From Tubulanus polymorphus (taxonomy: Eukaryota; Animalia; Nemertea): a DNA stretch of 64,000 nucleotides. Where the stretch lies: positions 17,878,210 through 17,942,209 of the forward strand of contig NC_134030.1 in assembly GCF_964204645.1 (NCBI RefSeq), written 5' to 3'. The notes beneath the pieces were generated by a model. The model had not been told where the DNA came from. It worked only from the letters and a program-made list of their open reading frames with translations, and did no database searches. The position numbers and the translations under genes were made by a program. The first letter of the stretch is position 1. Every line of letters starts with the position of its first letter. Below are positions 1,938 to 40,929 of the stretch, piece by piece.

Positions 1938-2135
1938 TAGGAACTCACGTACGGCGTTTTTAGGGAACTCACGAACGGTTAACCTGTGGATATCACCGTA
2001 CAGTCACGTACGGGTAACAACTTCGTATATACTTAAAATGGTATTGGCTACTAGGAACTCACGTACGGCGTTAGTAGGGAACTCACGTACGGTCACGTAC
2101 GGGTAACAACTATGTACTTAAAATGCTATTGGGTA
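1938..2135. repeat. Short imperfect tandem repeat (~113-bp unit) with GGAACTCACGTACGG motifs
   Basis: CTAGGAACTCACGTACGGCGTT at 1938 and 2051; GTCACGTACGGGTAACAACT twice. Confidence 0.6.
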
Positions 2136-2901
2136 CTATATAATAGGCCTATATATATAGACAAATAAATACCGGTAGGTAGGCTTTCTTGCTTAGCTTC
2201 CACACTTTACAACCGAACCAACTGACCAACCAGTATATTTATTCCCAGTACGCACCAACCGGCACAAGCCTAACACTGTTTGTCAACTGTGTTTACCGTA
2301 GTAGGCTATCGATAATCACCTGATACTTTTCTGTCGTTTGTTTTCTCTCTGAGTCGAACGTAATTCCTAATTCTAGTAGGCCTCCGCGACTCAACGACCT
2401 TGATTTAAACTTGATCAATTCAAAATCTGTTTATTGACGCTTTTGGTTACATGAACTGATCAGCAATATACTTAAATGAAATAACCGGAATAACAAGAAA
2501 TCAAAAATATTAAAGAGGTAACAAACAAATTCGCGTAAACCTGTCAGACACGCGAACGCCGGACTCGTAAACTCTTGGACTCGGACCCGCTGAGCAATAA
2601 ATTCATAAAATTGACTTTGAAATTGATTGTGGGGAAGAGAGGGAATTATTCGATAGCTCTTCCTCGAAAAGAAGAGAGAAATTTCTGAAAGAAAACACAA
2701 CATGGCTACTAATTGAACGGAGCCAAATTTCCGATGTTTACGGCTCGACAGTGCCTTTATAACGTGGATTTATCAACATTCCCATGCAGTATCTGGAGAT
2801 TGAAGTGAGCTGAAGGATATCATGCGGATTGTATCGGCGACAGCGGTAAGGTAAGGAAGCCTTTACACTTTTAACAAAAACTGTGTGGAAAAGGGAAAAA
2901 A

Positions 2902-3007
2902 AAATAATCACGCGAATTTCAATAGGGTTTTCTGTGAAGAAACAGAAAACCCTAATAATCACGCGAATTTCAATAGGGTTTTCTGTGAAGCAACAGAAAA
3001 CCCTAAT
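2902..3007. repeat. 51-bp tandem duplication containing the hairpin TAGGGTTTTCTGT-N6-ACAGAAAACCCTA (Helitron/Helentron-like non-autonomous repeat end)
   Basis: Two adjacent copies; related hairpins near 49015 and 55277. Confidence 0.55.
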
Positions 3008-3179
3008 TATGTATCTTATCTAGTTCGATCAGTTAATTCCTTATTCAGTGGCACGAAATCTCCGCGTATTACAAATGGTACTTTATTCTTATATTCATAT
3101 TTTTTTAATTTTGATTCATTATCTTTTTCTGTTGGTAAAGTTAATTTACAATAGTCATGATTATCACATAATTGCCGTA

Positions 3180-3236
3180 GGTATGTACGTATGTACGTGC
3201 ACGTACGTATGTACACGTACAAACACACGCACGCGC

Positions 3237-3289
<53 letters not shown>

Positions 3290-3295
3290 CACACA
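3180..3295. repeat. (CGTA)n/(CGCA)n/(CA)n microsatellite
   Basis: Read directly; replaces the segment equivalent to about 6560-6730 of the main element. Confidence 0.95.
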
Positions 3296-4382
3296 TAAAT
3301 CTTTTGATAGATATAAAGCATTTAATGTAAAATGTTTAATATTATCACCTTTTGTATTTGGTAATTTGATTAAATCAAATGCAGTTGTCTTTTAATTGTT
3401 GTCTCTTTCTATTATTTTATTCGAATATTTTTAATTGTAACAGGGTATCTGTCTATGTTATGTCTATTTTTAAACGGCATATAATTTGATAATCTAAAGC
3501 TATGTGTATTATCAGTTGCAGGATGTAGGGAACATATAATTGCTTATAGAAAACATTTATTATCTTCATTCTGTACGTTTATTAATGCATTAGTTTTAAG
3601 TGGTAATTTGATATAACTTGATGTTTCAATATCTGGATCTTTATAATATGATAAATTATCTTCGGATATTGGTTTCGATTTATTCAATTTATTATTTGTT
3701 TGTGTTATGAAACTTGTAATGTCAAAAATATTATCTTATCTAACACTAGACCTGATCCTTCAAAATGTGTCTCTTCAATTTTCTTTTTTACTTCTATATG
3801 AAATTTGATTAATCTACCATATATATGTTGTTTTGAAATAATATGTTGTGTTAATGAGAATTTATATTATACATGGGTTTATCTTCATATTTTAAAAATT
3901 TAACTTTAGCAGATATCCTAACATTTTCCATGTATGGTCTTTTATTATTTAATTCATTTTTTATCCTTTTAATTGTCCTTTGTTTTTCATTTTTATTATT
4001 ATCTAAATAATCTTCACCTAAAATATCATAAGTGATATTTCTAATATGATTTTTAGATTTTAAATCATGTTTATAATATCTTTTGTTACGGAATGATTGA
4101 TTACATGTAATACATATATTTCTTTTTCATTCTTCAATTCTTCTAATTTAGTTTCTAATATATCATCTGTATATTCTAATTTCAATTTATTTTCTAAGTG
4201 AGATTTAGTATTATTATATCTTGCTCTTTGAGATTTATCTATATTCATGTTACATGTTGGACAGTAGTACTTCTTATTTTCCTCCATTTAAATGACAGAT
4301 TTCTTATTAAAATTGATTCAGAAATATTATATAATATATGGATAAAAATTATATATATAAATATCACATATATAGATATTAA

Positions 4383-4807
4383 AGTACGTGTATATATCTT
4401 GTTTCATACCAGAGGTTGAAGGTTGACTGAGTTGAAAGAAAAAATGTAAAAAGTAATTTTAATTTCTAACTTTAACATATATTTGTAGTCGTGTGTATTC
4501 CTAGGTAATGATTAACAAAATAATTAATATTATTAGAATAGATTTAATTTTATATAAATATTATTCTGTTTGTGTATTGAAATTAAATCAATTGGGAGCG
4601 GAGCGTGCTCGTGGAGTGACCAATTGTTTTAATTTCAATATGCTTTGGAATTAAAATTATTAATATTTTAGAATAGATATATACAATATATTTAAAATTA
4701 TACAGGACTATGAATATATATTATATTAGAAATTAAAGTTACTTTTTATATTTTATATTTTTTCGACCGTTCGACCTCTGGTATGAAACAAGATATATAC
4801 ACTTACT
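4383..4807. repeat. ~425-bp imperfect palindrome forming the terminus of the second Polinton
   Basis: AGTACGTGTATATATCTTGTTTCATACCAGAGG at 4383 versus CCTCTGGTATGAAACAAGATATATACACTTACT ending 4807; central CAATTGG...CCAATTG stem. Confidence 0.85.
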
Positions 4808-4900
4808 TCTAATGCAATTGTTGATTTGAATGGAGCCTTCTTAGCCTTCTAATATATAGCTTGGCTTTTCGCTACTGCTTATCGAAAAATACGGGAGACG

Positions 4901-5476
4901 AGTAATAGGGGTAATAGGCTTTCATACCAAAGGTCGAAAGGTCGAGCCCATTAAAAAACAAAATATTAAAAGTAATTAAAAAACTATAATATATTTTCAT
5001 AACCGCGTGCATTTTATATCAAAACTAAATATTTATTCTAAGATATCAATAATATAAAAAGCATATTGTATTAAATCAATTGGTCGCTCCACTTCGCTAC
5101 CGCTCCGCTCCGCGACCAATTGATTTAATTACAATACACAAATTCAAATAATCAAATATATTCAAATGATAATAATTATTCTATTATTCAACTGAAATGC
5201 ACGCGGTTATGAAAATATATTATAGTTTTTTAATTACTTTTAATATATGTTATTAATGAACTCGATCATTAAACCTTTAGCTTGAAAGCCCATTACCCCT
5301 ATTACTCTTAAAATATTCACATAAATGAATAACATTTAAATCATTGAACTTCTAAAATCAATTTTAATAAAAAAATATAGTATTAAAATGGAAGCAAATA
5401 AGTACTACTGCCCAACATGTAATATCGATATAGATAAATCCCAAAAAGCAAGACACAATAAAACTAGAACACATTT
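4901..5476 (+). repeat. Left terminal inverted repeat (576 bp)
   Basis: Reverse complement of 23801-24375 with, by eye, one substitution and one 1-bp indel. Confidence 0.97.
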
Positions 5477-8400
5477 AGAGAATAAATTGAAATTAGAATA
5501 TGAAGATGATATATTAGAAAATAAATTAGAAGAATTAAAGGATGAAAAAGAAACATACAAATGTGATACATGTAATCAATCATTCAGTGATAAAAGATAT
5601 TATAAAGAACATTTAAAATCTATAAGTCATATTAGAAATAAGAATAATGATATTTTAGGTGAAGATTATTTTGATAATGATAACGATAAGAAACAGAAGA
5701 CAATTAAAAGAATAAAAAATAAATTAAACAATAAAAGACCATACATGGAAGATGTAAGAAATTATATTAATTCATTAGATAATAAAAAAGATATAGAGAT
5801 AACCGAAGCATTTAAAAGTGATATTGGTCCAGCAGCTATCGAGTTTAAATTTCATAAAGGTAAAACATTAGAAGAAAATAAAAAACATTTAGAAAATATG
5901 AAAGAAATAATAAAAATAATTACAAACGTAGAATATCCAAAAATTAGTTTATCAGTTAAAGTAAAGTTTATAAAATCTGAAGATAAACCAATATATAATA
6001 TAAATTCTCATTCACAACATATTATATCTAAACAACATATAGATGATAAATTAGATAAATGTTATAATGAAGTAAAAACTAAAATAGAAGAGAAATATTT
6101 TGAAGGATCTGGTTTAATATTTGATGAGATAATATTTATAACTTTACATGTTTATAACACAAAATAAAATAAGTTAACTAAATCAAAACCAATTGATGAA
6201 AATAATTTATCATATTATAAAGATGATAGTATAAATGGAACAAGTTATATTAAACTACCATTTAAAACTAATGCTGTAATAAATGTACAAAATGAAGATG
6301 ATAAATGTTTTCTATGGGCTATAATAAGTTGTTTACATCCAACAGAAGATATTACACATAGTTTTAGATTAACTCATTATAAACCATTTGAAAATAATTA
6401 TAAGATAGATAAGTATCCTGTTAGAATTAAAAACATCCCAAAAATAGAAAGAGATAATAATATAAAGATAAATGTATTTGATTTAATCAAATTACCAAAT
6501 ACAAAAGGAAATAGTATTAAACATTATACATTAGAACCTTTATACCTATCAAAAGATTATGATTCAAATGATTTTATAGATATATACTATATTATGAGAA
6601 TCATTACATGTGGATTAAACAAATCGATTTATTCTTTAGAACAGAAAGTGATCACCATAATAAAATATATCTATGTAGAAAATGTTTACATAGATTCAGT
6701 AATGAAAGTACATTATTAAATCATAAACAACTATGTGATAATCATGATTATTGTAAATTAGTTTTACCAAATGAAAAGGATAAAATATTAGAATTCAAAA
6801 ATATGATTACAAAAATAAAGTACCATTTGTAATATATGGAGATTTTGAATCATTAAATAAAGAATTAACAGATAAAGATAGAAAAGATATATATTATAAA
6901 AGAAAGAAATTAAATTCTAATGAAAGTGATTATTCAGAAGACCCACCAAAAACAAATACTATTAAAAAGATTCATCAATCAGCTGCAGCTTTCGGGTTAT
7001 ATATTAAATCTAATTATCCAGAACTAATCGAAAGTGAATATTATAATTATAGAAATGAAAATGTTATCAATCATTTTTGTGACTTATTAATTGAATATGA
7101 AATAAGATTTAGTAAATTATTGAATACAAATATAGAAATAATTATGACAGAAGAAGATAAAGAAGAATTTGAGTTTGCAGATAAATGTTATTATTGTGAA
7201 AAGATATTTAATTATATAGATAAAAAAGTAAGAGATCATGATCATTTGAATGGAAAGTTTAGAGGCGCTGCACATGAGAATTGTAACTTACAAGCTAAGA
7301 AAATTAACTTTGTACCAGTTATATTTCATAATCTATCGGGGTATGACGCGCATTTATTCATCAAACAGTTATGTCATAAAATAGAAGAAATCAATAATGA
7401 AATAGAAATATTAAATTCAAATAGATCAAAAGATAAAATACCAACTTATAAATTTAGAATGTTAGCTAAAACATCTGAGAATTATATATCTTTCCAATTT
7501 GGTTGTCTAAGATTTATAGATTCATATAGATTTTTAAGTAGTTCATTAGATAACTTATCAAAATCATTAGTTGATGATGAATTAAAGATATTAAAAGAAT
7601 ATTACCCAAATAATGATGATTTTCAATTAATGAGATATAAAGGAGCAATTCCATATTCTTTCTATAAAAATCATAATGATTTTAAAATAACTGAATTATT
7701 AAAAGAACAATTCTATGATGAATTAAAAAATGAATATGTTAAAGATGAAGTATATAATAGAACATTGAATATTTGGAATCATTTCAAAATAGAAAATCAT
7801 GGGCAATTAGTAGATTTATATTTAAAATCAGATGTATTATTATTAACCGATATATTCGAAAGGTTTAGAGATGTAAACCTAAAATATTTCAATATTGATC
7901 CTTGTCATTGTTATTCATCACCAGGATTAACATGGGATTGTGGATTAAAATTTACAGATATAAAAATGGATTTGTTAACAAATATAGATCAATTACTATT
8001 ATTTGAAAAATCTATAAGAGGAGGTGTTTCAGGTGTATTAGGTGATAGATATTTCAATGTAAATGATAATCCTGGATATAAATTATTATACATAGATGCA
8101 AATAATCTTTATGGTTGGGCAATGATGGAACCACAACCTTATGGGATGTTTGAAATAACTGAAGTTTTACAAATTGATAAATTTGATTGGAAGAAAAGAA
8201 TCCTAGATATTGCAGATGATTCAGATACTGGTTACTTCTTTGTTGTAGATTTAGAATACCCTGAAAATATTAAATTCAAATCTAGAAATCTAGCATATTG
8301 TCCCGAACATAAAACTGTTAAACATGAAGAATTATCAAATTATCAAAAAAGAATTAAACCCGATAATCATATTCATACTGAAAAGTTAATGGTAACTCAA

Positions 8401-9420
8401 GAAGATAAATATAATTACGTTGTGCATTATAGAATGTTGAAGTTTTATTTGAATCAAGGAATGATATTTAAAAAAGTACATAGATATATTTCATTCAGTC
8501 AATCTAAATGGTTAGAAAAATATATAGATTTTAATACTACACAGAGAACTAAATCTAAAACTGATTTTGAAAAAGATTTTTTTAAGTTAATGAATAATGC
8601 ATTCTATGGTAAGACTTGTGAAAACATAAGAAATAGAAATGATATCGAGTTAGTCAGTAATGGTAAAAGAATTAGGCATTTACAATCATATCCTAAGTTT
8701 ATAGGTAACAGAATATTTGATGAAAATTTAGCAGCAGTTAAAATGAAAAGAACTTCAATGAAGTTCAATAAACCTATTTATGTTGGTGCTGCAGTTCTAG
8801 AAATTTCAAAATTCCTAATGTATAAATTTTATTATAATATACTACAACCTCATTTTGGAGAAAAACACATAGAAATTCTATACTTTGATACCGACAGTTA
8901 CATATTAAAGATAAAAACTGATAACATAACAGATGATTTAAAAACATTAAAACACCATTTTGATTTTAGTAACTATCCTAAAGATCATGAATTGTTTAGC
9001 AATGATAATAAAAAAGTTCCCGGTAAATTCAAAGATGAATTAGGTGGTGAAGAAATGATAGAGTTCATTGGTATTAGATCTAAAATGTATTCATATAAAA
9101 CTAAAACTCATGAAGCTAAAAAGTTAAAAGGAATAACCAAAAGCGTTGTTGAAAAGAATATTCATTTTAAAGATTACATCAATTGTATATTTAATGAAGA
9201 AGTTAGAAAACATAAGATGAAATGTTTAAGATCTGAAGATCATGAAATGTATATTGAAGAGATAGAGAAGATAAGTCTAAACCCATTTGATGATAAACGA
9301 TATATATTAGATGATGGTATACACACAGTCGCCTATGGTTGCAATTTAGATGAATATATAAAATTCAAAAGAGAAGAAACAAAAGAAAATGAGATTATGA
9401 AAAGGATTCTAACGTGTTAA
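5388..9420 (+). pseudogene. pPolB: Protein-primed family B DNA polymerase with N-terminal C2H2 zinc fingers and an inserted endonuclease VII-like domain; disrupted in this copy
   Basis: One gene split by a TAA at 6165 and frameshifts near 6585 and 6800. Motifs: SYIKLP..INVQNEDDKCFLWA; ExoI VIYGDFES; CYYC..VRDHDHLNGKFRGAAHENCN; FHNLSGYD; motif A YIDANNLYG; motif B KLMNNAFYGK; motif C YFDTDS. Confidence 0.95.
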
Positions 9421-9448
9421 TCAATTTCAATAAAAATTTGTATAATAA

Positions 9449-9790
9449 ATGGAGAGTAAACAAGTACACAGTGAATTCTTAGATAGAATTAAAGATACTT
9501 CAAGCGTCAAATCTGTAGATTATAAATTTAAAAAGTTAACAGAATTAACAATTCACAAGAAATATTTAATTACTAACATTGAAACAATTACTAATAAATA
9601 TGGAGATAAATTAGTTATACACTTAGAATATGAAGGATTAAAAGGAAATAAATATAAATTCAGAACTTATTTACCAGATAGATTTCATAGATTATCAAGT
9701 GAAGATCTAGAAGAATTATGTTCTGGAGATTTCTATTTCGTATATTAAGGTAAGAATGAAAAAAGGCACCATGAAATAGATTTCGAATGA
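9449..9790 (+). CDS. Small conserved Polinton protein (possible OB-fold/ssDNA-binding); in-frame TAA at 9746
   Basis: FKKLTEL..Y.I..NKYG..TYLPDRF pattern; frame continues FVY*GKNEKRHHEIDFE to TGA at 9790; follows pPolB. Confidence 0.55.
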
Positions 9791-9807
9791 GAAAATATGT
9801 AAAATAA

Positions 9808-10556
9808 ATGGTAGAATTAAAAGAATACAGAATATTTGTTGATTCTAGAAAACTTACAAATTATAAATCACATAATTTATTAGTACAATTAGACAGAGAA
9901 TTCAAAAATTGTGTAGATTTAAAATTAGTTAATATAAGTTTATGTAATTCTTTTTATAATATATCGGATAAAACTTTTGAACATAGAGGGTTTATGATTT
10001 ATATGAGAAATAAAGATAAATGGTTTCATATATTTTTAAAACCAGGATTATATAATTTAGAATCATTAGCGCAGGAAATTAATAGAAGAGCTCGGTTGAA
10101 AATCGGGGGCACTTCTGTATTTGAAATTAAATTTAATATAATTGATAGTACTAATAAAATTAGAATAAAGATATCTAATGAACAACATAAATTTATGGTA
10201 AACAAACCACTAGCTAAAATGTTAGGAATTAAATCGCTTACAGTTACTGGAAACGCAGAAGGCAGCTCAAATATAATACCTTTTACACACTTTTATATTT
10301 ATTGCAATTTAATCGAGCCTACAAAAACTTTCGAAGCAACTAAAGAAACAATTTGTAGTTCTAGTATACTAAATATTTTACCGCTAAAAAATGTTAAACA
10401 ATTTGGAACTCAAATAAATTATAATTTAACAGAATGTGATTTTAAACCATGCATTCCTAAATTTAATAATTTTAAATTAGAAATCATAATGGATACTTAA
10501 TTGATTTAAATAACTTTCCTGTGATATATGAATTAGTTATAAGATGTAAAGAGTAA
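9808..10556 (+). CDS. Minor capsid protein (penton, single jelly roll); frameshifted C-terminus
   Basis: NSFYNI, PGLYNLESL, LAKMLGI, YIYCNLIE motifs; alternate frame ends NGYLIDLNNFPVIYELVIRCKE*. Confidence 0.8.
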
Positions 10557-10571
10557 TTTTTTGATATATAA

Positions 10572-10928
10572 ATGAATATAACTGTTGGACCGAGTATATG
10601 TTTTGGATTTGATTTTAAACGTGAGAAAGAAATGAAATTTAACATTAATGATGTAATAACACATATTAAAAATATTGCATTTTCTAATGAAACAACATTT
10701 GAGTATGAAACAACAATTGATAAAGAAACTTTAAATGTAGAAAAGATTACTAATTTAATTAGAGAATCTTTAAGATTTTATGAATTAGATGAAGATTTTA
10801 TCATCGATGATATTAAAAAAATAATAATTGAAATATATGATAATCATAAAACTAGTAATGAAATAAATGTTGAATTAATCATAAATAAGTTAACTAAATA
10901 TTTTGATGATAGTAATTTTTTTGATTAA
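10572..10928 (+). CDS. Hypothetical protein, 118 aa
   Basis: Intact ORF with TAAATG start inside the compact gene array. Confidence 0.7.
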   Translation: MNITVGPSICFGFDFKREKEMKFNINDVITHIKNIAFSNETTFEYETTIDKETLNVEKITNLIRESLRFYELDEDFIIDDIKKIIIEIYDNHKTSNEINVELIINKLTKYFDDSNFFD

Positions 10929-10931
10929 TAA

Positions 10932-11146
10932 ATGAGTGATAATTAGTGGATAATAACTGGATTATATAATGGCGCATTACTATCAGTTGGAACTGTTGGT
11001 TATTCAATGGTATTAAAAAAAGTATTCAAAATGGGAAGTGTTAATGTTGATAGATTTGATATAAATGATATTTTAAAGTTAACATTAGCAGATCTAATTT
11101 AACTATTGATTATTTGGAAAAACAAAAATATATTCCTCCCATATAA
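10932..11146 (+). pseudogene. Small hydrophobic Polinton protein (~70 aa), not in ORF track
   Basis: TAAATG start; MSDN*WIITGLYNGALLSVGTVGYSMVLKKVFK...DILKLTLA, then frameshift to TIDYLEKQKYIPPI*. Confidence 0.7.
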
Positions 11147-11171
11147 ATGCATAATTTTTTTTGCTAAATAA

Positions 11172-11584
11172 ATGGCTTCTGCAATTATAACTATTATAGG
11201 ATCAGCAATTGTTAACGCTTTAGCATTTACAGGTGGTGGTTATTTATTTAAACATATTGATAAAAATAGTTCATTAGGAGAACAAAGAAGACATAACTTA
11301 GCGTTAGAGAAATATAATAAAGCTGCAGAAGAATATAGAGAAAAAAGACAAAACTATATGGATTACATCAATAAAGAATTATATGATCAGAAGATTTCAC
11401 ATAGAGATTTTCAATCAGTTGATGATGCAATGAGTTTATATAACGCAGTAACAAATTACATCTATACAAACCTAAATTATCAGATTATTATACCCCAAGT
11501 AAAGAACAACAGAAATATGAAATAATTTGGATTTTAGGTGGAACTGTTATTGTTATATTTGTTGCTTATAAGTTTACTAATTAG
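11172..11584 (+). CDS. Membrane protein with N- and C-terminal hydrophobic segments; frameshift near 11455
   Basis: MASAIITIIGSAIVNALAFTGG...EQRRHNLALE; second frame KPKLSDYYTPSKEQQKYEIIWILGGTVIVIFVAYKF. Confidence 0.75.
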
Positions 11585-11603
11585 TAATTTTTATTCTAAA
11601 TAA

Positions 11604-12038
11604 ATGGAAGATAAAGTTGATAATATTGATATTATTCCTCATGATATAAATAAAACTAAATTAAAAACATATTTAGAAAAACAAATATTAGAATTTGAAA
11701 GTGACTTAAAAGTTAAAAAGAAAAAATATTTAAAAAGTAAAATTATATATTATTTGATTATAAGTGGTTCGGTTACAATTAGTTCTGTAATAACATTTCT
11801 AGCAATATTCAGTCCATTAACACCTTTAGCTATATCAATTGGTGTATTAGGATTAAGTTCAAGTGTTTTAACTGGTATAAGTTCAAAATTAAATATAAAA
11901 AGTAATAAAGAAAAAATTAAAACTAATATAAAAGAAATTAATAAATTAAAGAATACACTAGATTATATAATAAGTTTAAATGGTCATATAACAGTTGAAG
12001 AACAAGATAAATTATTAAAAGAATTAATAAATTATTAA
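11604..12038 (+). CDS. Two-TM-helix membrane protein, 144 aa
   Basis: Hydrophobic hairpin IIYYLIISGSVTISSVITFLAIFSPLTPLAISIGVLGL flanked by Lys-rich helical segments. Confidence 0.8.
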   Translation: MEDKVDNIDIIPHDINKTKLKTYLEKQILEFESDLKVKKKKYLKSKIIYYLIISGSVTISSVITFLAIFSPLTPLAISIGVLGLSSSVLTGISSKLNIKSNKEKIKTNIKEINKLKNTLDYIISLNGHITVEEQDKLLKELINY

Positions 12039-12054
12039 TTTTTTAATTATATAA

Positions 12055-13444
12055 ATGGTAGATAGTTTTCCAAAAGCTTTCCAATATAATAAATCAATTA
12101 AATATAATATTCCAGCAATAGATTTTAATAAAGATATTACATATAGAAATGAAGTTTTAAATTCATTAATTGATTTATATATTTATGTTACTGAAACTAA
12201 TAATTTTAATGCAAAGATGGAAAATATATTTCATGTATATTTAATTAATTTTAAAAAATTGAAAGATGAAAAACAATGGTTATTAAAATCTAATATGAAG
12301 TATTGGCAGAATCAATTAAATTTTGCTGTTTATTGTGCAACAACAGGATGTGGAATTAGTTGGAATGATCATTTGAATAATTCTAAATATAAATTAATTC
12401 AAAGTTTATTTAGATTTCATACATACTTTCAAATCAGAATAATATTAAATGAATTAGAGTGCGCTTTACCAGGATCTAGATATTTTAAAGAATTAGATAA
12501 TAATATTAATTTATCTAAGTTTTATAAGATTTGTAATGAATTTAATATAGATATAAATAATTCTGATTTTAGAACAAAAATTGGAACAATAAGATCACTT
12601 CCTTGCCCTAAAAAGATTGCAGAATATTGTGCACTTCCCATACCATCTAATAGTTTTTATAATATCTATAATAATAAATTAGGTTATGGTAAAATAGAAA
12701 CAAAGGATTTAGAAACATTAAATTTCAATAAATTACCAAAATTTTATGATAATTTAAAACAAGAAAACAATAATGGTTGGGTTTATTTCATTTTAGAGAA
12801 TAGTGAAAGTTTTACTAAATCAGGTATAGAAAGAATAAATCAATCTATTAGAACTTATTTGATTTGTATTCTAGGATCACAAGTTGAAACAAGATCACCG
12901 ATAATTGGAAATTTGAATACATCATTCGATAAACAAAAACAATTTAAAGTTTTATTTGAAGATTCAATTCATAATGATAAAAATAGATCGATTCCAGAAA
13001 ACATTATAAGATATCAAAATTATTTAGATAAATCTCATGTAAGACTTAATTATTGTATAGGCCCTAATCTATTAATTATTTCTAATGATTTAGTATTGAA
13101 GATGGGAAATATAATTGGTTATAATAATCTAATTAAAACCGCAACAATAAATAATTCATTTGGGTTAAATGATATAAATAAAAAGATTATCACTGCTCCA
13201 AAATTAATGGAAGGTGAAAAAAATAAAAAAACATATTCAATCAACTGAAACTAAAACTAAGAATATTAAATTGGATAATGATTCTAAAATAAAAGATTAC
13301 AATACATCAGAAAATATAAAAACTGATAATATTCAACATGATATAATTAAACTAAATGATGATAATAAATCCCATGAAAATACTAAATTAGCTATAACTT
13401 GTATAGGAATTGTAATCGGCGGAATATTATATTTTAAATTTTAA
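12055..13444 (+). CDS. Hypothetical Polinton protein (WQNQLNFAVYCATTGCGIS motif) with C-terminal TM anchor; frameshift in A-run near 13220
   Basis: ORFs 12055-13248 and 13214-13444 overlap at a homopolymer; the second ends LAITCIGIVIGGILYFKF. Confidence 0.75.
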
Positions 13445-13461
13445 TTTTTTTTATTATGTAA

Positions 13462-15189
13462 ATGGATGTAGAAGGTGGAGAAGATTATGAAATGGGAGAA
13501 ATGGGAAATAATAATGAAGGATATATTGATGATGAACCACAACCCGATTTTAATGAAACTAATATTGATAATAATGATGAATCAGCATATAATTCTAATT
13601 TAGGTGAAGATGATTATGATGATGATGATGGAATTAATACCGAAGTACGTGAAAAATTAAATAAATATTTAAAAGCTCCTGAAAGTGGTAGAATTTCAAC
13701 TAGAACAGAAAGAAAAGAATTCATGAAACTATTAGAAAAACAACAAGAAAAATATCCTAATGAACATTTGGAATTATATAGAATGAAATCTAGAGTAACA
13801 GATACAATTGTTAACGAATTATTACCATAAGTTGTAATAGATGAAATTGATACTGAAGATGTTGTAGAACAAATTTTTAAAGATGACCCATATTTCACGA
13901 ATAATTTAGAATTTAAAAATGATTCATGGTATTATAATCTTGAATTAAATAGGAATACTGTATCAATTCAATTATCTAGAATGGGTCAAGAAAATATTTT
14001 TGAACCTGGAATGCGAGCATTATCTACAATTGAAGGTTCAAAAGGTGGTAGAGAATTTCTTAGAATTATATGGAATGCAATCGATAGAATAAATGAAGAA
14101 GAACCAATTCCTAATATTAATATAAACAAATATTCACCATTTAAAAATCCAAATCCAAATCCTACTGATTTTGATCCAGAAATGGAAGAGAATAGAAATC
14201 GATTAGATAGATTAAGATCTTCAACACCCGAAACATCGAGAAGAGACACTCAACCAATTGATAATGATTCAAGTCAATTACAATTAGTAAAACATTTTGA
14301 TAGCATGTTAGATACAATTCATTCATTTGAAGAAGAGATGAATAGTGCTTTAGATACACCCGGTACTGAAACTGGAATAAATCGAATACAATCTTTACTA
14401 GAAAAAGGATTATTTGATTTAACTGATGATGAATTAGAAGCATTTCCTGAACAAACACATAGAGAAATTAAAGGTATGCAAGAATCAGCTGATAAAATTG
14501 CGCATGAAAAAAGTAAAAGAGATATTAAAATTAGATTTTTAGAAAAAGATAGAACTGATAAAAATAAAGAAATAGAAAAATTAAAGTCTGATTTAGACCA
14601 TCAAGTAATTGATGAAATAGAATATAGGCAAAAAGAATTACGTTTAGAAAAAGAAATAGATGATTTAGAATATAACATAGAATTACAAAAAGAAGAAATT
14701 AAATTATTTTTAAAATCATATGATTATAATATTAATAGATTAAAAGTTATTTTTAAAGATTTGTTGATTAAACCAAATTCTGAAATATCATTAAAAGACA
14801 GAATAAAGTTATTATTTAAATTAGAAGGAATAAAAATTCTTTCAATTCTAACAGCTGTAACTATGTTATTTACAACAATTGGTTTAGCAATATCAAATGC
14901 TTTGAAATCTACTCCTACTCCCAATAAACCAGATAAACCTCCAGGTAATAATTCTATACAAGATAAAGTTATGGATGGTTTAAAGAAATTAGCAAAATAT
15001 TTATGGGAACTATCTAAAAAATCTGCTGCAGCATTGCCAGGAGTTATTGCTTCAATTGTTGGTTTTATATTGAAATCTGCTGGGAATATTCTTAACTTTG
15101 CTGCTGAACATATTATTTTATTTTTAATTACAGTTGTAAGTGCTATTATTTTTGGGTTAGTAAATATGATATCAAAAAATATCAAGTAA
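13462..15189 (+). CDS. Large acidic/coiled-coil protein with C-terminal hydrophobic and amphipathic helices; one in-frame TAA at 13828
   Basis: ORFs 13462 and 13981 are in the same frame and open between them; C-terminus ...AAALPGVIASIVGFIL...AEHIILFLITVV. Confidence 0.8.
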
Positions 15190-15261
15190 ACCATGATATC
15201 AAAAAATATCAAGTAAACCATGATATCAAAAAATATCAAGTAAACCATGATATCAAAAAAT
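15166..15261 (+). repeat. 27-bp tandem repeat, ~3.5 copies
   Basis: ATGATATCAAAAAATATCAAGTAAACC repeated perfectly over the 3' end of the upstream gene. Confidence 0.95.
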
Positions 15262-15288
15262 AAATAATTAATTTTTTTTGTTAAATAA

Positions 15289-16536
15289 ATGAGTGGGAGT
15301 TATATAAGTCCTTCCAAGATTTCTAGAATATCTAATGCTATTAAAGCAGAAAGATCACATCATATAATTACTCATAACCCTTCAAATATTAATCCCGATG
15401 AAACTTTATATGTTAGAATTCCTAGATTAACACAAAATACTTTTTATGTTCCAAACAGTATTTATTTATCAGCCGATATAAAAGTAATCGGTAATAATAA
15501 TAATTATGTCGTTGATAATGTTGGAAGATATTTGATTAAAAAGTTAACAATAAAGATTGGTCCAGAAACAGTTTTCTCATTAGATGATTATGATTTATTT
15601 ATGCATTATAAAGATTTATGGTTAACTAAAGAAAATAGAAATAATATGATATTTCAGGGTATTCAATCAGAAAACCAAAATAAATTAAGATCAGAAGCTA
15701 ATAGCGCAATATTAACTAATGATGTAGATAAATTGATAAAAAGTATATATGGAAGTAAATATAAAATTCCATTAGACTTTGAATTGATAAATAATAATGC
15801 ACCTTTATATAAATACGCAATTCAAGAAGACGTTATATTTGAAATAACATTTGCTCCTGTAAATGAAATTGTATTATCTAGCGTTAATAAAGATATGAGT
15901 TATAAATTATCGAATATATGTTTAGAATATGATACAGTAACTGATGAAAATATTTCAAGTATAATTCAAACTAAGTACAATCAAGGGTTTTCATTATTAT
16001 ATGATTATATTGATAAATTTAAAACTGTAACTATTAATGCAAATGATGAAATAATTAATGAGAATATTAACTTTCCTAGAAGATCTATTAAAGGTATATT
16101 AATATTTTTTACCATTGGAACGTTTACTAATGGCGCAATAAATGTTGACAATTATTATAATCCTGAAATAACAAAAGTAGAAATAACTATCGAAGGAATA
16201 GCGAATAAAATATTTTGTCAAGGAATGAGAATGATTGATCAATGGGTAGAAATTAAAAAACATTTTATGAATGAAAAAATAAAATCATTTGAAAATTGTA
16301 ATATTAATCAAATTGATTATTATACCGGTAATAAATATGCATTATGGTTAGATTTTAGAACAACTGAAGATAATTCATTACATGGTTCTGGAAAAAAACT
16401 ACAAAATACAAAAGATGGAATACAATTATTCATGACAAAGAATAAAGGAATCAAAAATTTTTAAATGCACATTTATATTATATCTGACGCACAATTAAAT
16501 ATTGTAAATTCACAATTAGATAGTGTTATGTATTAA
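15289..16536 (+). CDS. Major capsid protein (double jelly roll); in-frame TAA at 16462
   Basis: ~415 codons, beta-rich: NPSNINPDETLYVRIP, VDNVGRYLIKKLTI, YKLSNICLEYD, KYALWLDFRT; frame continues MHIYIISDAQLNI to 16536; position in a Polinton. Confidence 0.75.
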
Positions 16537-16568
16537 AATTTTAACTTTAATAAAAATATATATATTAA

Positions 16569-17600
16569 ATGGAAGGTGGAATATATGAAATACAATCTCC
16601 AAGTGAAATGATATCAGATATATATTATATATTACCTTATGATGAATACAGTAAGTATTTTGGAGATTACTTTAATCAATTCAAATATAGAATAAGTAAA
16701 ATAGATAAGAATATTGAAACAAAAATAGAAGATAATATTGAACCTAAAATAGAAGATAAGAATGATATTGAATCTAAAATAGAAGATAATGTTATACCTT
16801 CTACATCGAATGATGATAAGATTGAAACAAAAATAGAATATAATATTGAACCTAAAATAGAAAAATCAAATGTTCAACCAAAAGATAACATCAGATGTAT
16901 GTATTGTGAAGAAGATTTTGATAATTATAATGATTATTTATTACACATCAAAAAAGATGAACATATTTTACAATTAGTAAAAACATATGCCAATATATAT
17001 AAAGATAAATGCAAAGAGGATCAGAATTATTGTGCCTTCTGTAATGAATGTATAACAAAGGCTAATTGGGCAAAACATTATAAATTAAAAACAAAAGGTG
17101 GAAATGATTCAGCCCATGCAATACAAGTATTTAAATCTTGGTGTGAAAAATGTAAAGAATATGTAATATATGATAAACAATTGAATCATAAATACTCAAT
17201 TAAACATATTGGTACAGATAATGTAATAGAAAATCCAACAGTTATAAATCCAAAATTTAATAAAAAGAATATATTAGATTATCGGTGGTATAGAAAAACA
17301 TTTATAGATTATTTCTTGAGTAATGATATAGTTACCATATTGAAAAAGTTAGATAACTTTAAACCAAATGTAACTTATGCAATGAACTTATTTGAACTTA
17401 AATATGATGATTTTAGAGAATTTTTAAATAAACATCCATCTAAAACTGAAATCGAAAATTATATTCCAAAAATATTTTCAAGAGAAACATTCAGGAAATA
17501 TAAACTCGAGAATTATTTAGGAATTATACCAAAGAAAATGCAGAGGGATATATATTTAGAATACAATAAGCTTAAAGAAAAATATGAAAATGAAAATTAA
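16569..17600 (+). CDS. Zinc-finger protein with IE(P/T/S)KIED low-complexity repeats, 343 aa
   Basis: CMYC-x12-H-x5-H, CAFC..H and CEKC..H..H clusters. Confidence 0.8.
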   Translation: MEGGIYEIQSPSEMISDIYYILPYDEYSKYFGDYFNQFKYRISKIDKNIETKIEDNIEPKIEDKNDIESKIEDNVIPSTSNDDKIETKIEYNIEPKIEKSNVQPKDNIRCMYCEEDFDNYNDYLLHIKKDEHILQLVKTYANIYKDKCKEDQNYCAFCNECITKANWAKHYKLKTKGGNDSAHAIQVFKSWCEKCKEYVIYDKQLNHKYSIKHIGTDNVIENPTVINPKFNKKNILDYRWYRKTFIDYFLSNDIVTILKKLDNFKPNVTYAMNLFELKYDDFREFLNKHPSKTEIENYIPKIFSRETFRKYKLENYLGIIPKKMQRDIYLEYNKLKEKYENEN

Positions 17601-17604
17601 AAAA

Positions 17605-17982
17605 ATTATAGAATTCACTGTATATTGATGGATGAATGGATGAGTTGGATGAGTTGGATGAGTTGGAAGAGTGGAAGAGTGGAAGAGTGTAATAATATAT
17701 ATATTTTACTTTTTAACACATAAATTGGAAGAATAGTATGAGTATAAATATAATATTTTTATTCTTTATTAAATTTAACACAATATATATATATTATTAA
17801 AATAATATTTAAATATAGTATAAAATTGATAAAATAACTTCAAATCAAACTCTTACTGTTTTAAAAATAAAAAACATATGTAAATTATATATTATTACAC
17901 TCATCCATTCATCCACTCATCCAATTCATCCAATTCATCGAATTCATCCACTCATCCATTAGTATACAGTGAATTCTATAAT
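17605..17982. repeat. Imperfect palindrome (~100-bp arms with GGATGAGT-like repeats) between convergent genes; candidate bidirectional 3'-end signal
   Basis: ATTATAGAATTCACTGTATA at 17605 and TATACAGTGAATTCTATAAT ending 17982; fills the gap between stops at 17600 and 17999. Confidence 0.85.
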
Positions 17983-17998
17983 ATTTTGAATTAGGATT

Positions 17999-18610
17999 TT
18001 ATTTTATAAATTTATATTCATATGGAAATTGTAATCTCATAAGTAATTTGGAACCTTTATTATTCTTTAATTTATTCATATATTCATCATGTAATTCAGT
18101 AGGTATAATTTGATTTTCTTCCAATGATTGTTGCATAGATTTTTTATCTTTGTTATAAAATAAAACTAGAAATCTTATATTCTCCCTAAAGTCTTTAACA
18201 ATTGAATTATATTTTTGATTTAAAACCCATGTTGTTTTCCTAAAATGTCTACCAGAGAAAGCTAAATAACATAACTCACTTTCTCTAATTTTAGAATCAT
18301 GTAAATTTGCGCAATCATCTATAATGAATAATGTATTTGATCCTTTATAAGTATCAATTGCTATTTTTATACAATTATCTAAATTTTCTTTTACTGTTTT
18401 AGGATCTAATATAATAAACTTTTTTATCTTAACTATGTCTCTATTATATGTTTTATTCATTTCATAAGTAGGACAGAATAATATTATATTATCAAAATGA
18501 TTCTTATAAATAGTTTCTAACAAGTCTAATATGAAGTGTGTTTTACCACAATTTGTAACTCCAGTAACTAACATATTATGTGGTTCAAATATAAATAAAT
18601 CTTTATTCAT
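17999..18610 (-). CDS. A32/FtsK-like genome packaging ATPase
   Basis: Walker A GVTNCGKT, Walker B LFIIDD, arginine finger GRHF, LNQ. Confidence 0.93.
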   Translation of the reverse strand: MNKDLFIFEPHNMLVTGVTNCGKTHFILDLLETIYKNHFDNIILFCPTYEMNKTYNRDIVKIKKFIILDPKTVKENLDNCIKIAIDTYKGSNTLFIIDDCANLHDSKIRESELCYLAFSGRHFRKTTWVLNQKYNSIVKDFRENIRFLVLFYNKDKKSMQQSLEENQIIPTELHDEYMNKLKNNKGSKLLMRLQFPYEYKFIK

Positions 18611-19691
18611 TTATTCTTTTAATTTTACTAGATAAAATCCATTCATTAAATTTATCATCATATCCTTTATATTTCACCAAAGAATACTTTTTTCCTTTAA
18701 GAGTTTTAGTTTTTAATATCTTTTCTATTTTGTATTCTATTTCATCTGGATTTGGTACAAGTGATAATTCTTGTTCATAGAAATAACCTAATATTTCTTC
18801 ATCTTTTAGATCTTCTAATTTATAAACAAATGGTTTAGTTAATATAATCTTTTTAATTTTAAATATTTCTTCAGTAAAATTAGGGGTATAACCTTTATAA
18901 AATGTTTTTCTATATTTAGAAATTCTAACATGTTGTCCTATTTTAAATTTAGGTTCTCCAAAATCATGTGTAACAAATGCTCCATATAAATTATTCCAAA
19001 CTATTTCTGAATTTTCTTCTTTTCTAGCTTGTATAGGTTTCATATTTATAGAACTATGTTTAGAATTATTATAACCTTTAACTAAATCATCTAACACATT
19101 GATATATTTATATGTTTCATTAGCGGTGAAATATTTCCACATTCTAGTTTTCAATGTTTTATTAAATCTTTCTATAACAGATGCTTTTTTATCTGAATGC
19201 GTTGAAAAATATTCTACATCGTTATCAGATAATAGTTTTTTGAAATGTTTGTTATAAAATTCTTTACCTTCATCAAATTGTATCTTATCTGGAATAGCTT
19301 CTTTAAATATTAATTTGAAAGAATTTGTAACTTCTATACCAGTTTTATTTTTAATCGGGATACTCCATGCGTATCTACTGAATATATCTATAACATTTAG
19401 TATCCAAAAATATCCTTTGTTATATTCTTCTAAGTTTTTCATGTCAATTAAATCAGCTTGCCATTGTTGGTCAATATATGAAACCATAACTTTTCTTGTT
19501 AAATATTTTTTATCCATCTTTTTATGAATTTGATATGTGGGTTGATTTTGTAACCATGATTTTAATTCACTATATTTTATTTTTTCTTTATTAGATTTAA
19601 TTTTATTCCATAATTCTGAAACACTTGAATATGAAACTTCACTTTCTGGGTTGTAATATAAATCTCTCAAATATTGTTCTTTTTTCATCAT
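18603..19691 (-). CDS. Retroviral-like (RVE, DDE) integrase with C-terminal chromodomain
   Basis: WQADLIDM, IDIFSRYAW, FDEGKEF, ASVIERFNKTLK; YKIEKIL...VKYKGYDDKFNEWI. Confidence 0.96.
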   Translation of the reverse strand: MMKKEQYLRDLYYNPESEVSYSSVSELWNKIKSNKEKIKYSELKSWLQNQPTYQIHKKMDKKYLTRKVMVSYIDQQWQADLIDMKNLEEYNKGYFWILNVIDIFSRYAWSIPIKNKTGIEVTNSFKLIFKEAIPDKIQFDEGKEFYNKHFKKLLSDNDVEYFSTHSDKKASVIERFNKTLKTRMWKYFTANETYKYINVLDDLVKGYNNSKHSSINMKPIQARKEENSEIVWNNLYGAFVTHDFGEPKFKIGQHVRISKYRKTFYKGYTPNFTEEIFKIKKIILTKPFVYKLEDLKDEEILGYFYEQELSLVPNPDEIEYKIEKILKTKTLKGKKYSLVKYKGYDDKFNEWILSSKIKRINE

Positions 19692-19694
19692 ATT

Positions 19695-20090
19695 TTAATC
19701 CATTAATAATATTTTAGATTTATTTTCATTTGATTTATGATTTGACTTATTTTCTGGTATAATAGGTTTATCATCATTGGAATCATCTTTATCATCAGAT
19801 TTGAATTTTGATTTATATATTACACCAGATAATATAATAACTGTTACTAATCCAATTGTAATATATAATTTATAATTACTTCCAGCATTAGAAGAATTAG
19901 ATGGATTATTATTTGAATCAATACCACCGTGTGGGTGCCGTACGGCACCATCAGATAAAGTCTGTGATTCATTTATATCAGTTAATTTCTTTTTCTTAGC
20001 TTTTTTTAATTCTGATGATCTTTTACCTAATTCTCTTGCCCATATAATTTGTTTCTCGGATCTAGGCTTCTTCTTAACGCTGTCACTCAT
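19695..20090 (-). CDS. Basic N-terminus, single-TM protein, 131 aa
   Basis: LYITIGLVTVIILSGVIY hydrophobic segment; TAAATG start. Confidence 0.75.
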   Translation of the reverse strand: MSDSVKKKPRSEKQIIWARELGKRSSELKKAKKKKLTDINESQTLSDGAVRHPHGGIDSNNNPSNSSNAGSNYKLYITIGLVTVIILSGVIYKSKFKSDDKDDSNDDKPIIPENKSNHKSNENKSKILLMD

Positions 20091-20685
20091 TTATTTTAGT
20101 TAATTTTTGTTCTGATTCATTTTCTGTTTCGACGTTTGGTTGTAGTACATCTGTTTCGTTCTTACCTGATTTATATTCCATAGGCTTGATGTTCGAAAAT
20201 GTTATGACACCAGTAGAAATCAATGTCATAACCGATCCTAATTGAAATGAAGCATAACCAACCCATTTTTGTAATTCAGTCATAACTAAGTAGTCATTTT
20301 TCAAATCATTATATAATTTATTTTCATCATCAATTGGTATTAACTGGTTACATAATTTTGAATAACATTTAACAATACCATCTGAAATAGAATCATTTAT
20401 TCTAGCTAATCGAGCTTCTTCATAAATCTTAAAAAATTTTATTACTTTATCGGGTTTCATAGCATCTAGTTCTTGAAAAGTAATGATTCTATTTAAAAAC
20501 TCCTTAGATTTCCCGCCAGCAATTAATAATTCAAGATGATGCTTACAATATAAGTAGTATTCATAATCTATATTGTTATTAACTTGAATAGAATTAGTTA
20601 CAACTGTATCTTTATTATCACTTATACCCAAATCATCTAATGTTTTTTCAATATCAATACTATTCTTATTAGATTTCTTTGACAT
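20083..20685 (-). CDS. Hypothetical Polinton protein, 200 aa
   Basis: Intact ORF with TAAATG start; stop overlaps the next gene's start. Confidence 0.75.
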   Translation of the reverse strand: MSKKSNKNSIDIEKTLDDLGISDNKDTVVTNSIQVNNNIDYEYYLYCKHHLELLIAGGKSKEFLNRIITFQELDAMKPDKVIKFFKIYEEARLARINDSISDGIVKCYSKLCNQLIPIDDENKLYNDLKNDYLVMTELQKWVGYASFQLGSVMTLISTGVITFSNIKPMEYKSGKNETDVLQPNVETENESEQKLTKINE

Positions 20686-21541
20686 TTATATTAGAGAAAT
20701 TTAATAAGAAAAATATTATAAGTATTCTTCAAATGATACTAGTATCTCTTTAGGTTAATACTAAATTGACTAAGTTAGTTAAAGTTAAAGAATTTCTATT
20801 CAAATCTATTCAAAATCTATTCAATCTAATGTCAATTAGAATTAACAAAAGAAAATATTGAAAATATAATAGAATTGACTAGCTAGTTGAAGTTATTGTT
20901 TTTTTATTATATTTTATTTAAATTAGGATTTAGATTATCTCACTACTATTGTTGTCCAGATAAGTCATTTCGGATCCTCGATATCAAATCCTCAACTGAA
21001 AATAAATTCAAAGAAACGACTGGTGGAAATATTATTTCATAAACAGATATATTTATTATACACATTTTAGCGATCAATAGTAGAACAATGGAGAACAATA
21101 GAAATGCGGTCCAATCGGACCGGTTATTGCGCAATACACAGTTAACAGTAAACAATACAATATTAAAACAGATATATACAATCGAGATCTAAGACCTTCA
21201 GTATTATAATTCATAATTTTGTCCAGAATTCTTTAATTACTGGATTGTTTCCAATCATTTCTTCAATTTCTGGTAAATGTCTTACTACTTCACTAAATGC
21301 TAATCCTAATATTTTGAATTTTTCATATTTTATTAATATTTTATTATGTGAATGTTGATTTCTAACTGCCAACGTGGCGCACGTTCGACCAAACTAATTA
21401 TTTCTGCACAGATGTTCTTTGTGATGAAGTTAATTAATTCTTTAGAATTGAAAACAAGATATATTTGGCAACATATGTTTTAGTAGTAAGCAAAAGCTAT
21501 GTATTATATACATACAAAGCTCAAATAGAATTACCAGCTTT

Positions 21542-22207
21542 CTAACCACTGATCAAAACCTCAGAATGCGGTTGATTCTGTGAAATACTATTCCATAATT
21601 CAACAAATGTCTTTGCTTTATCTAGTTGATCTAAATATAACTGTAAATCTAGTTTATTGGATTTAATAATGTTTTCCTTCTTTTCTAAAGGTCTTAGATT
21701 CTTCCAATTCCAAATAAGTTTTTTATTGTATTCATCATTCATGTCAAATTTAGAAATCGGCAACACATGATCAATATGAAAGTATTCACCATAATTATCT
21801 ATATTCATTTTATCGTCGAATTGATATATTATCCATGATTTGAGAAATTCATCTGAACAACCCAATAGATTAGATAGTGTTTCTGAATATGTTTCTTTGT
21901 TAAATAATTGTGTTAATCTAGACCGTAAACATTGTTTCAATCTAAAATTAAGATCTGTTTGATATCTTTCTCTCATATATTCTGTCATATAATCATTATA
22001 AGATTCTCTATTATCTTCTCGATATTGTTTGGTATATAGTTTAATGCAAGTTTTACAGTAATATTGAAAACCATCTTTGCTAATCTTACGCTTACTAAAT
22101 TCTGTTAATGATTTATCTAATTCACATTTAGAACACTTTTTGTAATATATGTTTATAACACCAGTGTTATTTGTAATATTGATAATTTGTGGTTGTTCTG
22201 GTTCTAT
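21542..22207 (-). CDS. HNH/endonuclease VII-like nuclease of the type common in large DNA viruses; start codon appears as ATA
   Basis: Frame open from TAA-ATA-GAA at 22207: KKCSKC..KDGFQYYCKTC, LLGCS, NYGEYFHIDHVLPIS, NWKNLRPL..KENIIKSNK. Confidence 0.8.
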   Translation of the reverse strand: MEPEQPQIINITNNTGVINIYYKKCSKCELDKSLTEFSKRKISKDGFQYYCKTCIKLYTKQYREDNRESYNDYMTEYMRERYQTDLNFRLKQCLRSRLTQLFNKETYSETLSNLLGCSDEFLKSWIIYQFDDKMNIDNYGEYFHIDHVLPISKFDMNDEYNKKLIWNWKNLRPLEKKENIIKSNKLDLQLYLDQLDKAKTFVELWNSISQNQPHSEVLISG

Positions 22208-22342
22208 TTATTATACATATTTTTTTACTAAATTGGTTAATATTTTAGAATCCTCTTCCATTTCTTCGATCAACGTCATCCTTTTTCATTCCTCGCTGCT
22301 TTTGATAAGTTGTTTCGATTCCTTGATATCTAAATAATACCA

Positions 22343-22785
22343 CTGGGCAAAACCGCGCATTCATGCGCGCTTTTGCTTAATGCGCATGCGTTAATCATAA
22401 TTATATTTACATAATGAATATATAATTATGTAAATAGAAACAACCGACATAAAATATCTAAATCATACAACTGAGCAAACCGCGCATTCGTGCGCGCTTT
22501 TGATCAATGCGCATGCGCTAATCATAATTATATATTCATTCTATAAATTCTGTAAAATAGAAACAAAAAATGCGTTACATGTGTTACATGCGTCACATGC
22601 GGCCATTTGTGGCCGGTTTTGCTTAATGCGTATGCGTTAATCATAATAGAAACGACCGAACATAAAAATTCACAAATCATACCTGAGCAAAAGCGCGCAT
22701 TCGTGCGTGCTTTTGCTTAATGCGCATGCGCTAATCATTATTGAAACGAATCATTATTGAAACGACTGAATATAAAAATTCACCA
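22343..22785. repeat. Cluster of ~4 imperfect GC-rich direct repeats with hairpins and TGCGCATGCG
   Basis: GCAAAA(G/C)CGCGCATTC(A/G)TGCG(C/T)GCTTTTGCTTAATGCGCATGCG units; motif at 22381, 22508, 22627, 22721. Confidence 0.85.
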
Positions 22786-40689: not shown

Positions 40690-40929
40690 GTAAATCAAAT
40701 GATAGCTCAGAAAACCTTGCAACCGTCATATTCATCTGAAAGTGATATAGAAACCTATTAATTTGACATTGGTTAACATAATTCAGACACATTATGAATT
40801 TGAGTAACATAAACTGAATTTTACGCATTAAATACCAAGAGTTAATTGTCATTTCAATCATAAATGTATGTATAAAGCCATACATCTTTTTGTAGTAGAT
40901 GAAAGAAATCGAATTTTATTTTTCAACAG

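Follow-up and report, generated by a model that had tools for sequence, protein, structure and literature searches.

Candidate late-type promoters of large DNA viruses at nearly all gene starts of a Polinton clade represented in the ribbon worm Tubulanus polymorphus

The 64,000-nucleotide stretch analyzed here (referred to as the window; Tubulanus polymorphus, contig NC_134030.1 of assembly GCF_964204645.1, positions 17,878,210 to 17,942,209, forward strand) contains a Polinton, in which the hexamer TAAATG covers the start codon of nearly every gene. Together with an A/T core and a near-fixed T at position −12, the hexamer forms a two-part signal that, judged by its sequence, is likely to be a late promoter for the polymerase and late factors of a helper virus. 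The element is best described as an integrated provirophage-like Polinton for whose transcription a co-infecting large DNA virus probably supplies the late machinery.

All 14 TAAATG sites listed in the initial annotation of the window (13 in the element and one, at 4287, in a neighboring relative) were recovered, each with its ATG where it had been placed. The described departures were found as well: the gene of pPolB, the protein-primed DNA polymerase B, begins in TAAAATG (5388), the nuclease frame in TAAATA, and the integrase deviates (19691, TAAAAT followed by ATG). The two exceptions among the 15 ATG starts, pPolB and integrase, both contain TAAAA just upstream of the ATG, and the integrase start reads TAAATG in two related loci (L001 and L002). 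The nuclease start of the window copy is atypical, as the reads of the DNA run X7 differ from the window there in 498 of 504 and in 562 of 563 cases. The hexamer contained the ATG in 13 of the 15 ATG-started genes versus 47 of the 787 other ATGs of the element (P approximately 1e-14) and 48 of the 533 ATGs that come first behind a stop codon in short frames (P approximately 2e-12). The span originally proposed (5350..22240) proved too narrow, since the inverted repeats place the element at 4901-24375. Intergenic distances of tens of bases, also claimed at the outset, apply to gaps of 3-99 nt besides two overlaps of 8 nt, and fail for one gap of 856 nt and one of 398 nt. The genes of the element are as follows (aa, amino acids):

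5388..9420, plus strand: pPolB (PF03175, E 4e-16), carrying Zn fingers at the N-terminus and, in addition, an endonuclease VII domain
9449..9748, plus strand: 99-aa gene, function unassigned; TAAATG, T at −12, A-rich upstream
9808..10553, plus strand: predicted minor capsid protein; TAAATG; broken near 10480
10572..10928, plus strand: 118-aa gene, function unassigned; TAAATG with T-run
10932..11150, plus strand: small hydrophobic gene; TAAATG with T-run; broken in this copy
11172..11584, plus strand: conserved gene of approximately 140 aa; TAAATG with T-run; broken near 11460-11510
11604..12038, plus strand: 144-aa gene with hydrophobic middle; TAAATG with T-run
12055..13444, plus strand: conserved gene of approximately 430 aa, function unassigned; TAAATG with T-run; broken near 13226
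13462..15189, plus strand: conserved gene of approximately 485 aa with hydrophobic C-terminal segments; TAAATG with T-run; stop at 13828-13830
15289..16536, plus strand: double jelly-roll major capsid protein; TAAATG with T-run; stop at 16462-16464
16569..17600, plus strand: 343-aa gene of variable sequence, containing Cys/His motifs; TAAATG preceded by an A-rich stretch
17587..18000, no strand: long imperfect palindrome between convergent genes, a candidate two-way terminator
17999..18610, minus strand: A32-like packaging ATPase (PF04665, E 1e-11); its TAAATG lies within the last integrase codons
18603..19691, minus strand: rve integrase with chromodomain (PF00665, E 7e-9); start TAAAAT, then ATG
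19695..20090, minus strand: 131-aa gene; TAAATG within the upstream gene; among the loci compared, in the TAAATG clade only
20083..20685, minus strand: conserved 200-aa gene, function unassigned; TAAATG
21542..22210, minus strand: HNH / endonuclease VII-like nuclease; frame begins TAAATA, a non-canonical start in the window copy

Relatives of the element were collected from metagenomes with a capsid alignment (190 relatives, the best 80 of which were kept; loci labelled L001 onward). The window grouped with L001-L014 in a quick tree of 85 rows (Shimodaira-Hasegawa-like approximate likelihood ratio test, 98) and in a careful tree of 28 rows (support 100/99); the partial loci L034 and L077 were placed in this clade by identity (52% and 58%). 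In the comparison with other Mavericks, envisaged in the initial annotation, the motif proved specific to the clade: four orthologous genes had TAAATG at 26 of 28 starts inside versus 0 of 101 outside, whereas the Kozak purine at −3 was present at 85 of the 101 outsider starts and at 2 of the 28 clade starts. Because of this Kozak context, the outsiders appear to be read by the host RNA polymerase II. The low GC content of the element (approximately 24%) might suggest that the hexamer arose by chance from AT richness; indeed, the element is more AT-rich than its flanks, as first described (GC 21-28% over 5001-22000 versus 31-45% in the flank from 25001). However, AT-rich outsiders (GC of 40% or less) showed TAAATG at 0 of 25 starts, clade members with 36-44% GC retained it, and it was in marked excess over other ATGs of the element (P approximately 1e-12 to 1e-14). 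As to stop-start overlap, named beforehand as a trivial source alongside AT content, the TAA is the stop codon of the upstream gene at 0 of the 13 window starts. Chance is refuted by the ATG counts and the AT-rich outsiders, and its probability is negligible.

The capsid gene starts with TAAATG in 14 of 14 cases, at protein identities of 52-76%, and the motif also persists within overlapping reading frames, which indicates continued selection. This conservation makes it very improbable that the promoters are relics of a helper-dependent ancestor and that the current copies spread by nuclear transposition without them, even though the window copy is decayed (seven genes, among them those of pPolB and the capsid protein, are broken) and the majority of family reads resemble it at 90-99%. 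Some of the loci are near-duplicates, and the switch to the motif counts as one or two events. In L051, L054, L055 and L061, a second Polinton lineage, TAAATG was found at 8 of 10 starts, with T at −12 in only 4 of 8. Searches of IMG/VR with the capsid, the capsid alignment and the kinase alignment yielded no relative. Capsid homologues occurred in assemblies labelled Bartonella, Burkholderiales and Iainarchaeum (P0047 cluster; L081; L082), which likely contain animal DNA; P0047 sits inside the TAAATG clade in the tree. One relative without the motif (L062, 6543-7049) gave a weak Pox_VLTF3 match below the cut-off (E 6e-4).

The second component of the signal is a T at −12, which was present in 13 of 13 TAAATG starts of the window (P 5e-6), at the pPolB start and at the neighbor's pPolB start (TAAATG at 4287). 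Within the clade, it occurred in 63 of 68 starts versus 43 of 130 non-start TAAATGs; an A at −18 (50 of 68 versus 38 of 130) and an upstream run of at least five T (35 of 69 versus 10 of 130) were likewise enriched. The ATG was followed by G in 48 and by A in 18 of 69 clade starts. Many capsid-side genes possess the T-run, pPolB and some others an A-rich core; these two types of core recall, by analogy, the late and intermediate promoter classes of vaccinia virus. The combination of T at −12 and TAAATG at fixed spacing constitutes a two-part signal that resembles the vaccinia late promoter: as in poxvirus late promoters, TAAAT lies over the start codon, is followed by G or A, and a conserved T is located approximately 10 nt upstream. 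According to a review, TAAAT(G) overlaps the start codon in vaccinia late promoters, and the 10th base upstream is a conserved T (PMC11980589); in the P11 promoter, the run of T extends as far as −12 (PMC7117657, Table 1). TAAA is recognized by the poxvirus polymerase itself (PMC12917281), and slippage at TAAA yields a poly(A) leader (PMC6211774). The promoters of the element share with the vaccinia late/intermediate promoters the TAAATG start followed by G/A, the spaced T-rich core and the A-rich subclass (PMC11980589, PMC12917281, PMC5294985, PMC7117657), and differ from them in the additional A at −18 and in the presence of the motif on nearly all genes of a 19.5-kb element in which no RNA polymerase was found.

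The motif might instead act at the RNA level, either as the preceding gene's poly(A) signal, placed on the next start, or as an in-frame stop that couples translation. In agreement with this, 31 of 69 clade starts read AATAAATG, which contains AATAAA, the TAA is in frame with the ATG, and the gaps are short. Yet 22 of 24 divergent clade starts, which are often 24-30 nt apart around a common A/T core, have TAAATG without any upstream gene; the TAA is the real stop of the preceding gene in only 1 of 69 clade starts (and lies within the preceding reading frame in 7 of 69); and a fixed T at −12 would not be expected for such signals. The RNA-level explanation is therefore improbable: the divergent starts and the retention of the hexamer at 36-44% GC rule out AT content and render both stop-start overlap and poly(A) signals unlikely. 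Trans-splicing was rejected because no conserved AG precedes the starts in the sequence logo.

If the element is transcribed by a helper virus, infection by the latter would provide the late factors and the polymerase that read the element promoters. In poxviruses, late transcription starts within the AAA, where the polymerase slips and so gives the message a 5' poly(A) leader; correspondingly, the messages of the element would lack a templated leader, start from the AAA and acquire poly(A) by slippage. The disfavored T at −3 might make sense in this way, because a message that begins in AAA and gains further A residues would carry an A in its place. Back-to-back genes would jointly use one near-palindromic core. 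The element would make its own DNA by means of pPolB, in some members plus a nucleoside kinase, its own capsid would package it, and the integrase would re-insert it. A precedent for activation in the nucleus is provided by mavirus, for which a late factor of the helper has been proposed to enter the nucleus (10.1101/068312).

Alternatively, the clade might be autonomous and nuclear, with host polymerase II, perhaps assisted by a factor of the element, using a short-leader promoter that converged on TAAATG. The high copy number with its many insertion sites, the lack of a helper among the matches listed in the IMG/VR pattern scans and the several conserved genes without assigned function would be in accord with such a mode of life. 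It is nevertheless unlikely, given that T at −3 is a poor Kozak context in animals, that the outsiders retain the purine and that TAAATG is also used by viruses encoding their own late factors. Furthermore, were the motif read as a TATA box, transcription would begin only downstream of the start codon; the consensus of YY1/TISU (translation initiator of short 5' untranslated regions) needs a purine or C/G at −3.

With regard to the nature of the presumed helper, no match to an RNA polymerase or capping enzyme was found in the open reading frames (ORFs) of the window element, and no polymerase gene among the clade ORFs scanned. Candidate viruses were taken from two pattern scans of IMG/VR (the first for back-to-back TAAATGG), and the figures hold among the matches listed. 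TAAATG starts made up 21 of 62 in records that we take, in part from Pfam matches, to be iridovirus-like and 10 of 21 in those we take to be entomopox-like, up to two sites per record of this first set being pattern-selected; in listed giant-virus records with VLTF3, unselected TAAATG starts amounted to 4 of 9 (G002) and 6 of 16 (G003). Judged by these sequences, the hexamer occurs widely in large DNA viruses, and its presence in iridovirus-like and other giant-virus records implies that the helper need not be a poxvirus. The initial proposal of a pox-like helper or another nucleocytoplasmic large DNA virus is consequently retained in part: the motif, its fixed spacing, its clade specificity, the lack of an RNA polymerase match and the animal host speak in its favor, but TAAATG is not poxvirus-specific. 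Plausible candidate helpers are those large DNA viruses that possess a late transcription machinery of their own; a pox-type virus would fit the T at −12 best, judged by the published vaccinia consensus, and iridovirus-like and other giant viruses remain candidates. The late initiator TATA of African swine fever virus (PMC7163114) was a poorer fit than TAAAT. In the iridovirus-like records L204, L205, L207, L209 and L213, all 21 TAAATG starts read AATAAATG, with A at −9 in 18 of 21; this is possibly a late promoter motif, which was absent from one literature search.

Several observations weigh against transcription by a helper virus. Among the matches listed in the two pattern scans, no virus displayed the exact two-part architecture. 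The T at −12 was not conserved at the TAAATG starts of entomopox-like (4 of 10) and iridovirus-like records (8 of 21), and at all TAAATGG sites, not starts only, it was found in 37 of 84 (G002) and 15 of 47 (G003). The counting of the vaccinia T is ambiguous, as the 10th upstream base corresponds to −12 from the first A and to −13 from the T of TAAAT. A shared TAAATG origin of the clade and the L051 lineage was not rejected (approximately unbiased test, p 0.40), so that the switch amounts to one, at most two events. The high copy number signifies frequent access to the germline nucleus. AATAAA was undepleted in the coding strands of both groups (ratios 1.03 and 1.04) and, in consequence, does not separate nuclear from cytoplasmic transcription; the test of AATAAA plus splice-donor depletion was uninformative. 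On the other side, the rarity of TTTTTNT in the coding strands of the clade (17 versus 55.8 expected, ratio 0.30; outsiders 0.74-0.80, iridovirus-like 0.98, entomopox-like 0.64) counts in favor of such transcription, with reservations: since A-runs were depleted too (0.76 and 0.61), this deficit is partly general, and in vaccinia virus TTTTTNT is the early, not the late, terminator.

Mavirus possesses an rve integrase and pPolB. The mavirus provirophage of Cafeteria is similar to the window element in that it integrates and has promoters of large-virus late type: these match the late motif of Cafeteria roenbergensis virus (CroV), by which the integrated copy is activated (10.1101/068312). It is distinguished by its protist host, its virophage-type capsid and the CroV motif TCTA, in contrast to the animal host, the Polinton-type capsid, TAAATG and a helper that is a candidate only (10.1101/068312). 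The window element would work like mavirus if the inference holds, and is by its capsid no virophage; as regards the virophage-like character claimed initially, its promoter hexamer occurs in several large-virus groups, and a virophage-type capsid is absent. The window element gave no match to the Sputnik major capsid protein in a search in which the virophage L157 gives one. L157, of Sputnik type, has TAAATG at 3 of 7 starts.

The yeast elements pGKL1/2 have neither capsid nor integrase, and a G-containing upstream motif is typical of the yeast elements; elements of this type are known from fungi, which counts against a polymerase of their cytoplasmic virus-like-element type in the present clade. 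They are comparable to the window element in pPolB, terminal repeats, AT richness and a TAAAN initiator but bring along an RNA polymerase and a capping enzyme of their own, for neither of which the window element gave a match (PMC6211774). An explanation built on such a polymerase could invoke the TAAAN initiator and slippage leaders of the yeast virus-like elements (PMC6211774) as well as their descent from proto-Polintons (PMC11161782); it is quite improbable, as the sequence logo of the clade lacks a conserved G-containing upstream element and no polymerase gene was encountered among the scanned clade ORFs.

Animal Polinton-like elements tied to a poxvirus are represented by the entomopoxvirus-associated Polinton-like viruses (PMC11296320). 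Three of these, in occlusion bodies, measure 11.4-12.7 kb; all four are described with an adenovirus-type protease and two without integrase (PMC11296320). By a term search of its text, this publication never mentions promoter, motif or TAAAT, and further Polinton papers likewise do not contain "promoter"; its supplement, which comprises proteins and few repeats, holds two TAAATG matches, none shown at a start. With the animal Maverick-Polintons of groups 1 and 2, the window element has in common the inverted repeats and the 6-bp target copy as well as pPolB, rve, A32 ATPase and a double jelly-roll capsid; no cysteine protease was detected in it, and the relatives outside the clade use Kozak starts (10.64898/2026.06.19.733378). 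A place of the element among the Aquintovirus-like elements of bivalves and cnidarians is conceivable. It is debated whether animal Mavericks live as autonomous viruses, as transposons or as parasites of larger viruses, and none of their virions has been seen, as far as that source goes (10.64898/2026.06.19.733378). No report of TAAATG promoters in a Polinton was found in the literature, the supplements of two 2026 preprints lying outside the scope; where papers contain both terms, the hexamer belongs to primers in two, and a third deals with small RNAs of aphids. Late-type promoters of this kind on a Polinton are thus apparently unreported.

If helper transcription applies, one Polinton clade would have replaced the usual context of its starts by a late promoter of large-virus type at nearly all genes, which would give a sequence-only marker of likely helper dependence and predicts a large DNA virus in a lophotrochozoan host. 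More tentatively, and rather as a possibility than an expectation, invertebrates including ribbon worms may hold, in hundreds of germline copies, a Polinton lineage adapted to an RNA polymerase of poxvirus type, that is, an animal provirophage switched on by, and maybe defending against, a pox-like virus of marine invertebrates; if so, promoter grammar would sort animal Mavericks into helper-dependent and autonomous ones.

The element (19.5 kb) is bounded by terminal inverted repeats of approximately 575 bp with AGT/ACT ends and displays the hallmarks of a Polinton/Maverick, i.e. AG...CT inverted repeats, a 6-bp target duplication, pPolB, rve, A32 ATPase and a double jelly-roll capsid. The features at its borders are:

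242..4850, minus strand: neighboring decayed relative, 74-80% identical, head to head, approximately 50 bp from the left end
4895..4900, plus strand: left 6-bp target-site copy, identical to 24376-24381 in five of six letters
4901..5476, plus strand: left terminal inverted repeat; begins AGT and holds a palindrome, the pPolB promoter and first codons
23801..24375, minus strand: right terminal inverted repeat; ends ACT; 1652 reads of run X7 continue into mixed flanks

Family reads stop at the left end (4901), and the sequences flanking them are mixed. The depth of run X7 was several hundred over most of the element versus 0.2-4.5 in three flank bins, the remaining flank bins being repeats and the copy number estimate being uncalibrated; together with the 1652 right-end reads, this depth makes it likely that the family comprises hundreds of insertions. 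The runs X8-X10 yielded no more than scraps, which say nothing about expression. Both terminal repeats are themselves long imperfect palindromes (4963-5246 and 24030-24313), and each comprises the pPolB promoter together with the first codons. GC-richer dispersed repeats occupy 22350-22790 in the right arm, which is non-coding; a triple repeat of 27 bp behind the 485-aa gene (15166-15262) is absent from many family reads. A search of the window against Rfam returned no family.

Concerning the individual proteins, the model of the major capsid protein (mean predicted local distance difference test score 84) had the capsid of Paramecium bursaria chlorella virus 1 as top structural match (E 2e-12). 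The ORF at 9808 gave only a weak Pfam match (DUF5901, E 0.0014); it is conserved in the family and, by its sequence, likely encodes a minor capsid protein. pPolB of the window copy is interrupted by a stop codon (6165-6167) and shifts frame in the region of 6600-6800, and the frame at 10932 is reduced to four codons, its intact 75-aa orthologue in L001 having an identical start. The protein of approximately 430 aa had no fold match (best Z 3.9, to a coiled coil) and no Atlas match. Adenovirus-type cysteine protease, a trait of Polinton/Maverick group 1, was not matched in 20 window ORFs and 76 ORFs of relatives, among them ORFs of unassigned function. Among the loci compared, the HNH nuclease family and the nucleoside kinase (L001 and L008) were found only within the TAAATG clade, which may lend weak support to contact with large viruses. 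Palindromes between convergent genes with stems of 18-36 bp were present at 4 of 8 clade junctions, whereas outside the clade none of the 33 junctions had a stem as long as 18 bp; those in L002 (3687-3853), L003 (3043-3209) and L004 (3120-3278) are candidate hairpin terminators.

In the flank, a host GRL101-like receptor extends in long uninterrupted frames (39304-44163 and 28315-29544); of the matches of this flanking gene, a protein of Tubulanus polymorphus shares 71% identity and the remaining 44 no more than 37%, so that, going by this single gene, the host is probably a nemertean. The pile-up of reads on the 28315 region indicates that this region is repeated. A transposase-like frame and two remnants resembling the endonuclease/reverse transcriptase of long interspersed nuclear elements were labelled by eye (35365-37326, 45215-48152 and 52619-54694).

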